DNA of 64,000 nucleotides, taken from sequence record OP172789; one strand, 5' to 3'. Of the stretch, positions 511 through 5,274 are shown in pieces. Numbering within the stretch: position 1 is the stretch's first letter; the number at the start of each line of letters is the position of its first letter. The position numbers were made by a program, and so were the translations under genes. The stretch comes from Escherichia phage ECO71P1. The notes below the pieces were generated by a model. That model worked only from the letters and a program-made list of their open reading frames with translations, was not told the DNA's origin and did no database searches.

Positions 511-530
511 AAAAGGGCCAATCGGCCCTC
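508..530 (-). terminator. rho-independent terminator (GGGCC GATT GGCCC plus T5 on minus strand)
   Basis: Hairpin 515-528 followed on the minus strand by UUUUU. Confidence 0.55.
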
Positions 531-546
531 TTAACATTAATCACTA

Positions 547-999
547 TTAAAATATAAAATTCTTCACTCCTAGCCTTTTAAATTCTTTCCTTAAAATTAT
601 ATTAAACTTCTTCAATTTAGTTTTATTCATCCTTAGCGGATTATAGGTGAACACCTTTTCTATTACTTCCTCGCTCATTTTTGAGCGCATATTAGTTGCG
701 TAATAGTTCTTGAACATATTAATAAGGTGATTGGATTCCAGCTTAAGCTCAATCACTTCTTCCGATTCATCAAGCTCAAGCAATCCTTTTTGCGTAAGAA
801 TATCTCTCAATATATTCTGACACTTCTTGCAATCACCTTTGCCTAAAAGCGAGTCGATATAATCGCCGCTGACGCGCTCATCACCGAAATACGTTGCGCG
901 ACCACAAAGGCTTTGCACTTCTCCTTCGTCAAAGTAATGCGCACGATGTCCCCACTTCGGTATGGCCCAACCAGCGGCGATAAGCCGTTTACCCATCAC
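547..999 (-). CDS. hypothetical protein (150 aa)
   Basis: Long ORF at the distal end of the minus-strand early block; hairpin plus T-tract follows on the minus strand at 508-530. Confidence 0.5.
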   Translation of the reverse strand: MMGKRLIAAGWAIPKWGHRAHYFDEGEVQSLCGRATYFGDERVSGDYIDSLLGKGDCKKCQNILRDILTQKGLLELDESEEVIELKLESNHLINMFKNYYATNMRSKMSEEVIEKVFTYNPLRMNKTKLKKFNIILRKEFKRLGVKNFIF

Positions 1000-1592
1000 C
1001 CCTCCTTAACGACCCGATAAGCAATGATGTCTGAACCATAGCCAAGCAATGTTCTATCCCAACCGATGCAGTCAGAAAATATGTCTTTAGTGATAATGCC
1101 ATCTCGATATTTAACGTCTACCCGTTTCCCAGGTGCTGGATTTTCACCACCAAACCAACCGTTCCAAGCAACATTGTCATTGCTCTTAACCACCCGATAA
1201 GCAGCTATGTCACTGCCTTTGAGCGCTCCTATGTGACCCCAGTAAAGATGGTCAGAAAGTCTTGATAAAACTTTATCAACTCCATCGCGCAGCTTGTATT
1301 CAACCATCTTACCAGGCACCGGATTCTCTCCACCAAACCACACGTTCCACGCTTCTTCCTTCGGCGCATCATCCACGCCTATATTAGCAACAACGTCATG
1401 TAACTGCTTAACGAGCGCCGACGCATCACGGACCTGTGAGCGTAATGCAACCAACTCGCGTTGCGCTTCACTATATTTCTCTTCCAGCGCGGCATAGTCC
1501 TCATATTCAACGTAGCCGCCTTCATTATCCTTTACAACTTCGCAAGTGCAAGCGTGCTGCGTGCAATAATCAACATCATAACGTTGTATCAT
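996..1592 (-). CDS. hypothetical protein with two tandem copies of a ~45-aa W-x-GGENP-x-PGK ... (D)IIAYRVV module
   Basis: ORF track; internal duplication visible in translation (WNVWFGGENPVPGK...GSDIAAYRVV and WNGWFGGENPAPGK...GSDIIAYRVV); 4-nt overlap with neighbour. Confidence 0.55.
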   Translation of the reverse strand: MIQRYDVDYCTQHACTCEVVKDNEGGYVEYEDYAALEEKYSEAQRELVALRSQVRDASALVKQLHDVVANIGVDDAPKEEAWNVWFGGENPVPGKMVEYKLRDGVDKVLSRLSDHLYWGHIGALKGSDIAAYRVVKSNDNVAWNGWFGGENPAPGKRVDVKYRDGIITKDIFSDCIGWDRTLLGYGSDIIAYRVVKEG

Positions 1593-2079
1593 TTAACTTC
1601 TCCAAAATTTCGATAGCGATTTGTGTTTGCTTCTCAAGCGCGATACGCAACATGTCAATTTGCAAGTCACGATGGGCCAGTTCAGCGGCGATGTCCGACT
1701 TGCTGTAAAGACCTTCATGCGTCATGGCATAGATGTGGCGCGTATAATAGCCGCCCTCATCGAGTTGCTCGATGTCACGTTGCCCGACTGCATATTGTTT
1801 ATCGGCTGTTTGCGCCGCTTCTTGGATTCTTATTTCTGCCACTTCCTTTAATGAATCGCTTGATGCTGGTCTGTTCTCTTCGAACATATTCCCATCACCA
1901 ATTTGCGCGCACCAAATCGAATCACCAGAAAAGCGCCACTGGCCGCCCAAGTCATCCCATGCAGGCTTTTCTTCATAAGCCCAGATCATCCCGTTAGAAT
2001 CGCGCGCAACGAATCGTGCGCGAGCGTCTATTTCGTATTCTTTACCTTCGAACTTGATGCGCTGTCTATTGTTAGTCAT
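1576..2079 (-). CDS. hypothetical protein (167 aa)
   Basis: ORF track; co-directional compact packing. Confidence 0.5.
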   Translation of the reverse strand: MTNNRQRIKFEGKEYEIDARARFVARDSNGMIWAYEEKPAWDDLGGQWRFSGDSIWCAQIGDGNMFEENRPASSDSLKEVAEIRIQEAAQTADKQYAVGQRDIEQLDEGGYYTRHIYAMTHEGLYSKSDIAAELAHRDLQIDMLRIALEKQTQIAIEILEKLNDTTL

Positions 2080-2408
2080 GATGCATCCTTAGTTGGATAG
2101 AATTTAGGGTTGTTCTTATAGAATGCCTTGAGCCATGCCTTTGCTTCAGCGATGCTGCTGAACTCTTCCTTGGAGAGTCCGGTGCGGTCCTCGCCTGCGA
2201 CCTTGAAATGGATGCGCACCTTGAGCCGAAGGTTGGTTGCTCTCGCGTAGTGGCCTTCATAGCCGTGATGGTCGAGGCTTACGATGGCGGCAAGCAGCTC
2301 GCAATCTTCTTTATCGGGATTGCCGCTGTAACAAGTCGGCCAGCCGCGACGTTGGAATGACCTGTATTGGCCTGTTGGCTCAGGGTCCACGTACCATTTC
2401 AATTTCAT
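2076..2408 (-). CDS. hypothetical protein (110 aa)
   Basis: ORF track; 4-nt overlaps with both neighbours. Confidence 0.5.
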   Translation of the reverse strand: MKLKWYVDPEPTGQYRSFQRRGWPTCYSGNPDKEDCELLAAIVSLDHHGYEGHYARATNLRLKVRIHFKVAGEDRTGLSKEEFSSIAEAKAWLKAFYKNNPKFYPTKDAS

Positions 2409-2746
2409 TTAACCTTCTCCAATTGGAATCTTGCTTCTGGAAAGCCTGCGACAAACATGTCACGACCCTCGACATCACGCTTCACGAACCAACGCATCCC
2501 GTTGACGACCGTGAAGACAATTTGCCTTCCATCAATAATAAGTCCTTTCGCCTCATAAAGCAAATAAGTCTGACCGACTTTGAAGCTTAACATATCCTTG
2601 CTTGTGCTGGTGCACTTGAGCCGCCACTTGGTGAGATTGGATTCGCTTGCCTCAATGTCAACAACCTTACCGCGCAGCGGCGATGTGCGTTGAAGCTCTT
2701 TCATCTGCTCATCGAACGTGAGTTCACGGACTTCTTGCTCTTCCAT
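2405..2746 (-). CDS. hypothetical protein (113 aa)
   Basis: ORF track; overlapping start/stop with neighbours. Confidence 0.5.
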   Translation of the reverse strand: MEEQEVRELTFDEQMKELQRTSPLRGKVVDIEASESNLTKWRLKCTSTSKDMLSFKVGQTYLLYEAKGLIIDGRQIVFTVVNGMRWFVKRDVEGRDMFVAGFPEARFQLEKVK

Positions 2747-3246
2747 TATTCCTCCACGACGCGATAGGCAATGATGTCATCTCCGCTTCCAACGTGCTTC
2801 CATCTTACTGATTGTGAGCCGTAACACCCGACGGACTTTATCCCGCTTCTCATTTTGTACTTGATAATCTTCCCAGGCACCGGATTCTCGCCTCCAGCCC
2901 ATTCAATCCAACCTTCATGAGACTCTTCGGACTTCTTCAAGTGATCGTACTTTTCACCAATGTGGGCAATTGGTTGGTTGCTGTTGTAAAAGAATCCAAG
3001 CGCAACATCGTAGCACGGATGACTATGAGAAAGACAGATGTCATCGCACCAAAGCTCCATGGTGCGCGACTTAAGGGTCATGATATTGGTATACCACTCG
3101 ATGGTGTAGTGGTCGTTAAGGTTGCCGACGATATAGAAGTTGCGACAAAAGTGCGCAGCATCGTCGGACTTCTCGCGGCGATAGCTTTTGATTGCGCCAG
3201 CCTTTACAGCCATTTCCAGTACTGCTTCGAGTTGTTCGATTTTCAT
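2746..3246 (-). CDS. hypothetical protein carrying one copy of the W-x-GGENP-x-PGK ... IIAYRVV module at its C-terminus
   Basis: Translation ends ...WIEWAGGENPVPGKIIKYKMRSG...GSGDDIIAYRVVEE, paralogous to the repeats in 996-1592. Confidence 0.55.
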   Translation of the reverse strand: MKIEQLEAVLEMAVKAGAIKSYRREKSDDAAHFCRNFYIVGNLNDHYTIEWYTNIMTLKSRTMELWCDDICLSHSHPCYDVALGFFYNSNQPIAHIGEKYDHLKKSEESHEGWIEWAGGENPVPGKIIKYKMRSGIKSVGCYGSQSVRWKHVGSGDDIIAYRVVEE

Positions 3247-3938: not shown

Positions 3939-3959
3939 AATCATTTCTCCTTTGCTTGA

Positions 3960-4013
3960 TGAACTAAGTATAATACAGGCAAATAAAAAGGCAAGCATTT
4001 AGCTCACCTTTTT
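3960..4013 (-). promoter_or_regulatory. early promoter: conserved 27-bp element AAAAGGTGAGCTAAATGCTTGCCTTTT (minus-strand sense), then -35 TTGCCT and -10 TATACT
   Basis: -35/-10 hexamers with 16-17 bp spacing read directly; same element repeated at 5221-5274. Confidence 0.55.
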
Positions 4014-4666: not shown

Positions 4667-4899
4667 TTTGCATACTCCATAGCATATTGCTGCAGCTTAA
4701 ACGCAGCCTTTTGTAATTGTTTGTGGCGTTCAAATAACGTCTCACGCTTTTCAGCATGGCAATCGGCGCGAAGCATTGTTATGGCAACGCTTGACATAGC
4801 ATTCAATAAAAACTGAAAACGAGACACCATGCGCAGCTCATTGCGCTTGTTGAAAGACAGCTTACCCAGCGCGGCATTCATAATTGCACCTCGACACAC
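4663..4899 (-). CDS. hypothetical protein (78 aa)
   Basis: ORF track. Confidence 0.4.
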   Translation of the reverse strand: MCRGAIMNAALGKLSFNKRNELRMVSRFQFLLNAMSSVAITMLRADCHAEKRETLFERHKQLQKAAFKLQQYAMEYAK

Positions 4900-5195
4900 G
4901 ATTCACTAGCCTTGAATCCCCAGCCTTCCAGACCGACTTCGCCGCAGCAGCGCACCTTTGCCCAACCAGTCATGAGCCATTGGCGATACTTTTCGAAGTA
5001 TGTTGGCTTTTCTGAATAACAATGAACAAGGCCGTCGTCATCAATGGCCACGTAACGCGTCCAAGGCGCAACGGGTACAACTACGTCGGGGTGCGACTCT
5101 GGCCAAGGCTTGATGTGTACAGCTGTGTTCAAGTCTACGTTTAACACGCTGCCTAACCGCTCGTCTTGTTCCTGGTCAATGCCTAAGTAAATCAT
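4878..5195 (-). CDS. hypothetical protein (105 aa)
   Basis: ORF track; GAGGTG RBS and the conserved promoter element upstream. Confidence 0.5.
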   Translation of the reverse strand: MIYLGIDQEQDERLGSVLNVDLNTAVHIKPWPESHPDVVVPVAPWTRYVAIDDDGLVHCYSEKPTYFEKYRQWLMTGWAKVRCCGEVGLEGWGFKASESCVEVQL

Positions 5196-5220
5196 AATTC
5201 ACCTCGCTTGTTAGTCTTGA

Positions 5221-5274
5221 TGAACAGAGTATAAGTATTGATAAAAGAAAAGGCAAGCATTTAGCTCACCTTTT
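5221..5274 (-). promoter_or_regulatory. early promoter, second copy of the conserved 27-bp element with -35 TTGCCT, 17-bp spacer, -10 TATACT
   Basis: Near-identical to 3987-4013; hexamers read directly. Confidence 0.55.

Follow-up and report, generated by a model that had tools for sequence, protein, structure and literature searches.

Near the start of the 64,000 nucleotides of Escherichia phage ECO71P1 analysed here (sequence record OP172789; the window hereafter) lie two genes encoding proteins of 198 and 166 amino acids, p198 (996-1592) and p166 (2746-3246), which share a small protein module. Wifcevirus phages of E. coli and Shigella match the region at 86-95% identity, and p198 is listed, at 100% identity, as a hypothetical protein of ECO71P1. 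Both genes are on the minus strand, which corrects an earlier note on this DNA made from its letters, and so are all three copies of the module. In p198, an N-terminal region that is probably helical or coiled-coil (a Pfam scan gives weak DivIC and TPR coiled-coil matches over residues 29-71) is followed by two modules: copy 1 (1185-1352, minus strand; residues 81-136, AWNVWFGGENPVPGK...SDIAAYRVVK) and copy 2 (1005-1169, minus strand; residues 142-196, AWNGWFGGENPAPGK...SDIIAYRVVK). In p166, an independent N-terminal domain (residues 1 to about 108) precedes a single module, copy 3 (2752-2913, minus strand; residues 112-165, GWIEWAGGENPVPGK...DDIIAYRVVE). The independent E-values of the three copies against a hidden Markov model (HMM) are 4e-35, 4e-33 and 1.6e-32, respectively.

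A six-frame scan of the window for W-x-GG-[ED]-x-P found exactly three sites, two in p198 and one in p166, and an HMM built from the three copies found no fourth copy in the six-frame translation (next match, E=0.58). Pairwise protein identity of the copies is 47-56% over 53-55 aligned residues, with BLASTP E-values of 3e-18 between copies 1 and 2, and of 1e-16 and 3e-12 between the p198 copies and p166. Motif scan, BLASTP and HMM hence agree that the module is reiterated three times across the two proteins, as the earlier note had proposed. The unit is about 55 residues long instead of the 45 given there; GGENP, PGK and AYRVV, described there as invariant, are indeed identical in the three copies, and DIIAYRVV, the longer string given for the module, is not, since copy 1 reads DIAAYRVV. 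In DNA the copies share no more than 51-57% identity, and codons of conserved residues differ synonymously, which means that the similarity is kept at the protein level and does not come from a recent DNA duplication. The copies are thus old duplicates kept alike by selection on the protein. We also considered them as the target of a diversity-generating retroelement and rejected this: there is no further copy in any of the six frames, the copies are too far apart in DNA sequence, and DNA repeats are confined to their flanks (no search was aimed at a reverse transcriptase).

The module extends far outside this phage. A word-indexed search with the p198 tandem returned 113 homologue clusters, whose contigs are nearly all about 68 kb long. 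With a profile of 19 modules we recovered many free-standing proteins of 56-100 residues that share the consensus WIEWxGGECPV...DIIAYRVV, Herbaspirillum, Mesorhizobium and Sphingomonas being among their sources; free-standing versions of 56-70 residues are found in many genomes. An exhaustive HMMER search of 1.84 billion representative sequences yielded 3,664 proteins at E<=1e-3, of which 302 also passed E<=1e-10. The total includes some repeat-driven noise, as one match (P0268, a Gram-positive, LPXTG-anchored adhesin of 441 residues with MucBP repeats) reaches E=2.6e-17 through five partial profile matches and contains no true module. In GenBank phages, tblastn with a single sequence matched 144 records (39 from Klebsiella phages, 39 from Escherichia, 13 from Pseudomonas, 12 from Burkholderia, 9 from Aeromonas, and others). 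In the 50 of these records that were listed, product names are missing or uninformative ('hypothetical protein', a gp label, 'conserved phage protein'); the sole exception is a 'polynucleotide kinase', a label that probably reflects a DUF3310-like partner region. The BFVD database holds independent predicted structures of the module from many phage genera. Finally, 185,579 species genomes were scanned with a strict pattern, from a narrow alignment that samples the WIxWxGGE[CN]P subtype only; this gave 29 loci, mostly in Proteobacteria. The module defines a large family that is missing from the curated libraries searched, with its members mainly in tailed phages and in prophages of Proteobacteria.

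Pfam-A leaves the module region of p198 and p166 unmatched, and 119 diverse isolated modules scanned against it at E<=1 share no family, producing single-member matches only (E of at least 0.0095). No NCBIfam or PADLOC family matched p198, p166 or eight of their homologues at E<=0.01, and two profiles compared with PDB sequences gave chance-level matches only (E about 0.5). All-alpha nucleoside triphosphate pyrophosphohydrolase and DUF3310-type catalytic domains are absent from p198 and p166 in the Pfam scan, and occur as fusion partners in other phages only. Four PHROG families do match the module (phrog_11995, phrog_9174, phrog_16943 and phrog_26870), all of them annotated as 'unknown function': they match p198 over two stretches each (E from 5.5e-19 to 5e-9) and p166 over residues 105-165 (E from 3.6e-13 to 2e-8), and in p166 a different family, phrog_21861, spans residues 1-104. 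The profiles of these four families contain the module and the matched stretches coincide with it. Yet they are whole-protein clusters split by partner region, which leave the limits of the domain undrawn and give it neither a function nor a structure nor a name. Literature searches with motif strings of the module returned nothing relevant, and the BASEL paper on Wifcevirus does not discuss the p198 and p166 genes. The proteins are already clustered in PHROGs, therefore, but the domain itself is neither delineated nor named in the searched libraries, in solved structures or in the searchable literature.

Using the alignment of 119 modules with copy 3 as its first sequence, AlphaFold2 predicts an all-beta structure for the p166 module, with a predicted local distance difference test score (pLDDT) of 88.2 and a predicted template modelling score (pTM) of 0.67. 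The model has a short first strand in WIEW, long strands at positions 16-21 and 47-52, and a shorter strand and one turn at about 26-35. That the module is a small domain, as the earlier note had it, is consistent with its being predicted to fold alone (pLDDT 88) and with the existence of the free-standing 56-70-residue proteins. BFVD models agree with ours at template modelling scores of 0.8-0.95, and structural comparison with BFVD and solved chains left the module without a match to any solved chain. The domain is very small and the models compared are predictions; the fold may be new if the predicted structure holds. For the p198 tandem (121 residues, alignment of 50 sequences), the model shows the four-strand pattern twice, with a pLDDT of 82.6 and a pTM of 0.62. 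This pTM is higher than expected for two freely hinged units of 55 residues, and hence hints at a defined arrangement of the two modules.

The consensus of the family is W-I-E-W-x-G-G-E-[C/N]-P-V ... V-x-V-x-x-R-x-G ... W-x-H ... D-I-I-A-Y-R-V-V. Across the 119 modules W2, W5, G7, G8, P11, W38, D46, I47, A49, Y50 and R51 are near-invariant, V12, V17, R22, G24 and H40 are frequent, and positions 25-37 and 41-45 are variable and carry insertions and deletions. Position 10 is a cysteine in 52 of the 119 and an asparagine in 49 (the latter being the case for the copies in the window), and position 40 is a histidine in 86. A zinc ribbon or zinc knuckle, which needs four Cys/His ligands, can be rejected, as the alignment offers only one semi-conserved cysteine and one histidine. 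Charge is not uniform in the family: the median isoelectric point (pI) is 5.5 and the median net charge -2, and the window copies have pI values of 8.1-9.2.

Related phages show that the module behaves in Wifcevirus as a cassette, which can be acquired, lost or exchanged. Two modules arranged as in p198 are present in 5 of the 113 homologue clusters, and the p198 orthologue of phage Mansfield has a single module, of a different core type. The p166 orthologues of the Wifcevirus phages Mansfield and AV128 are 85-93% identical to p166 over residues 1-108 (93% for Mansfield) and have no module. Fifteen core types can be distinguished, of which types 0 and 2 are found on both p198-like and p166-like N-termini. 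The core of copy 1 is of type 0, the commonest among the retrieved homologues, nearly all of which come from Wifcevirus-sized contigs (about 68 kb), and that of copy 2 is of type 1. In 70 single-module homologues of p198, again almost all from such contigs, the flanks of the module are 87% identical and the core 57%. These conserved flanks are direct repeats at the DNA level (62 nucleotides at 69-74% identity and 29 nucleotides at 79-86%), and are plausible recombination points.

The N-terminal domain of p166 (2914-3246, minus strand; phrog_21861) is an independent unit that is also found without the module. Besides Mansfield and AV128, phAPEC8-like phages (Phapecoctavirus) of about 150 kb have it alone, at 48.5% identity; most of the roughly 70 further records matching this domain come from them.

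To describe the architectures in which the module is found, we took the 138 newly returned representatives among the top 150 matches: 51 carry one copy, 63 carry two, 15 three and 8 four, with linkers mostly of 2-14 residues. Matches were ranked by total score, so that this census over-represents multi-copy proteins. The module can be N-terminal, internal or C-terminal, and its partner regions are extremely diverse and mostly unannotated. The recognisable partners in 143 proteins are DUF3310 (five proteins), dGTP_diPhyd_N (three), DUF6378 (three) and dATP-dGTP_PPHyd (one), together with HTH_3, Lar, DUF551 and RHH. Fusions to DUF3310 or DUF6378 also occur at five independent genome loci (L016, L018, L022, L028 and L032), and the same partner fusions are present in BFVD entries, which are named after the partner domain. 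DUF3310 has been implicated in the nucleotide kinase activity of T7 gp1.7 (PMC10700055) and is also the SaV domain of lactococcal phages (PMC8306868). In Burkholderia phage HN03, a gene encoding a DUF3310-like region and the module sits between the DNA polymerase and exonuclease genes. In bacterial genomes, stand-alone and fused module genes lie in prophage replication or nin-type neighbourhoods, next to genes for NinX, Lar, lambda O and P, DnaB, NinB, DUF1367, SSB, dUTPase, a deoxynucleoside monophosphate kinase and the small terminase subunit.

In the window, the p198 and p166 genes belong to a long same-strand run of small overlapping genes that are 'hypothetical' throughout in relatives; in phage Bas101 this run is contiguous with DNA primase genes. 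The earlier note's description of p198 and p166 as early proteins is supported as far as position goes, by this same-strand block contiguous with primase and by the O/P, DnaB, NinB, NinX, Lar and SSB neighbours in prophages. A terminator-like hairpin (511-532, minus strand; 9-bp stem with 5 GC pairs, followed by a T-run; from a consensus scan only) lies just downstream of the open reading frame (ORF) at 547-999, the gene that follows p198, and is the probable end of a leftward transcription unit. A scan of the region for promoters and terminators gave no more sites than shuffled sequences did. Upstream of the p166/p198 unit there is an intergenic hairpin with a -10-like element (3955-4012, minus strand) that is repeated at 5216-5274. 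Both copies contain an identical 26-nucleotide core, AAAGGTGAGCTAAATGCTTGCCTTTT, which comprises the hairpin and T-run, followed by TTATACT and a conserved GTTCATCAAG; two copies are found in the 64 kb where none is expected by chance. This repeat is probably a terminator/promoter boundary inside the small-gene block. The hairpin elements suggest, but are no proof of, a transcription unit holding both the p198 and the p166 genes.

Other genes of the block may have exchanged parts too. The motif YYTRHIYAMTHEGLYSKSDIAAELAHRD, from the C-terminal part of the 167-residue product of ORF 1576-2079 (minus strand), forms the N-terminus of two phage proteins, P0102 and P0289, in which the W-GGENP module follows it directly as a fusion; this is further evidence of module shuffling among the genes of the block. 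Likewise, a 70-residue protein encoded on another, Wifcevirus-like contig of 67 kb (P0071) joins the start of the 110-residue product of ORF 2076-2408 (minus strand; MKLKWY...) straight to the module, suggesting a deletion or fusion between neighbouring genes. A second small module, R-[FY]-V-A-x-D-x-x-G...Y-x-E-K-P...W, is found in the same block, in residues 21-52 of the product of ORF 1576-2079 and in residues 46-77 of that of ORF 4878-5195 (minus strand), with 38% identity over 32 residues (pairwise E=6e-6); the first of these products matches only PHROGs of unknown function. In the whole window no tRNA genes were found, and GC skew changes sign near 12 kb and near 30-32 kb, marking changes of coding strand.

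Taken together, we consider that the module is an autonomous, non-catalytic and portable binding or adaptor domain, a reading to which we give a probability of roughly 55% and in which binding is inferred from architecture and genomic context. Autonomy, promiscuity of partners, tandem arrays, a conserved framework with variable loops and optional presence make up the signature of such a domain. The conserved framework (three tryptophans, the GG-x-x-P turn, R22, H40, D46, Y50 and R51) would hold two variable loops, and the module would be deployed alone, in tandem arrays or joined to cargo domains, with multivalency provided by tandem duplication, as in p198, or by an N-terminal coiled coil. 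On two accessory proteins of the Wifcevirus window, putatively delayed-early ones, it would be an optional cassette at the C-terminus. In the infected cell, the preferred target would be a component with a tie to nucleotide supply or DNA replication: repeated fusion to DUF3310 (T7 gp1.7 type) and to dATP/dGTP diphosphohydrolase points to a target of this kind, and nucleotide metabolism and DNA replication are the sole recurrent functional theme among partners and neighbours. As a specific claim, such a nucleotide or replication link is tentative and, in our judgement, doubtful.

Several points weigh against the adaptor reading and its proposed target. Every functional statement made here derives from architecture and context. 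The partner census is biased towards multi-copy proteins, with most partner regions unannotated. Alignment of partner regions with hhalign (DUF3310-like, dGTP_diPhyd_N-like, DUF6378-like and others, from small alignments) reached a probability of 18% at best, and we consequently do not claim that the partner families form one superfamily. A census of the neighbours of stand-alone module genes found no consistent adjacency to DUF3310 or MazG-like genes, so that the fusions could reflect shuffling within one neighbourhood rather than a functional link. Packing of the tandem was judged on pTM alone, without the predicted aligned error, and is no proof that the modules pack against each other. Lastly, the polar conserved residues E9, R22, H40, D46 and R51 are also compatible with a small-molecule site.

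One alternative is that the module binds a small molecule: a nucleotide, a deoxynucleotide or a signalling nucleotide. Fused to nucleotide-metabolising enzymes it would then be a sensor, and as a stand-alone protein or tandem array a sequestering 'sponge', for instance against nucleotide-signalling defence. Recurrent fusion to DUF3310, dATP/dGTP diphosphohydrolase and DUF6378 would fit such a role, as would the set of polar and aromatic conserved residues (W2, W5, E9, R22, W38, H40, D46, Y50 and R51) and the occurrence of small stand-alone proteins in early or nin regions. Tad2/DUF2829 and Acb2, which are nucleotide sponges and small stand-alone early phage proteins, would then be possible analogues; unlike them, the module has no Pfam match to DUF2829 and no structural match to solved chains. 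Indeed, no known sponge family was matched in Pfam, and no PADLOC model matched either, PADLOC covering defence and not anti-defence proteins. Variable loops and cassette exchange within one genus are better explained by a variable macromolecular target, and we regard small-molecule binding as unlikely. A more far-reaching version, in which a previously undescribed fold binds nucleotides or immune signals derived from nucleotides, as an anti-defence sponge when alone or in tandem and as a substrate-capturing or sensing element when fused to nucleotide kinases or diphosphohydrolases, is quite unlikely in our view; were it true, cassette exchange in Wifcevirus would reflect an arms race.

Another alternative is that the module serves self-association or scaffolding only: it would be a beta-sheet dimerisation element, oligomerising any protein that carries it, without an external target. 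Tandem pairs with short linkers are very common, the tandem model keeps its pTM of 0.62, the last strand is hydrophobic on both faces (I47, I48, A49, Y50, V52 and V53), and single-module Wifcevirus proteins pair the module with a probable coiled-coil region, all of which could be expected of such an element. However, free-standing 56-70-residue versions are abundant and conserved, and an oligomerisation tag on its own has no obvious role. The p166 N-terminal domain, moreover, does without the module in Mansfield, AV128 and Phapecoctavirus, and the cassette-like variation of the loops suggests external specificity. Self-association as the only role is, hence, improbable.

A nucleic-acid-binding domain that tethers its cargo to DNA or RNA would account for the replication-region contexts and for the tandem arrays, which are seen in many nucleic-acid-binding modules, and the HTH_3 domain of one homologue goes in the same direction. 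The three basic copies of the window (pI 8.1-9.2) would suit it as well, but the acidic median pI and negative median charge of the 119 diverse modules do not, and we find this explanation very unlikely. Chance, low complexity or a well-known housekeeping domain (the last having been raised in the earlier note) can be excluded for practical purposes by the pairwise E-values of 1e-12 to 1e-18, the thousands of homologues, the lack of any Pfam or NCBIfam model and the phage or prophage context of every match that could be placed.

As a portable binding or adaptor domain, the module would have functional analogues in the small beta-barrels of the SH3-like, Tudor, KOW and Sm types, which are of comparable size, all-beta and aromatic-rich, and serve as binding modules singly or in tandem. 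Closer in setting are DUF551 (PF04448) and Lar (PF14354), short modules that occur alone or fused in the same neighbourhoods, and that are both found fused to the module or beside it; they differ in having no sequence relationship with it, the module matching neither Pfam model. T7 gp1.7/SaV-like proteins provide, through DUF3310, the commonest recognisable fusion partner in other phages, and DUF3310 proteins are early, often toxic phage proteins linked to nucleotide kinase activity (PMC10700055; PMC8306868). Here DUF3310 is the partner and not the module, however, and neither p198 nor p166 contains it.

The module belongs to a familiar kind, that of the small mobile domains of phage early accessory regions. 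Its family is unusually large, and it does not amount to a new category of system. It makes a good case for a new domain-family entry and for focused biochemical work; in practice one would probably gain such an entry and a defined construct for pull-down and structural work, without resolving any standing question. 'Hypothetical protein' is the only annotation of thousands of phage and prophage proteins that carry the module, among them proteins of therapeutic-candidate phages of E. coli, Klebsiella, Pseudomonas and Burkholderia; the domain boundaries give annotation pipelines a handle on them and separate the module from its cargo domains. Furthermore, the link to nucleotide-metabolism enzymes and replication-region genes would offer a tractable entry into the unexplained early accessory genes of these phages.

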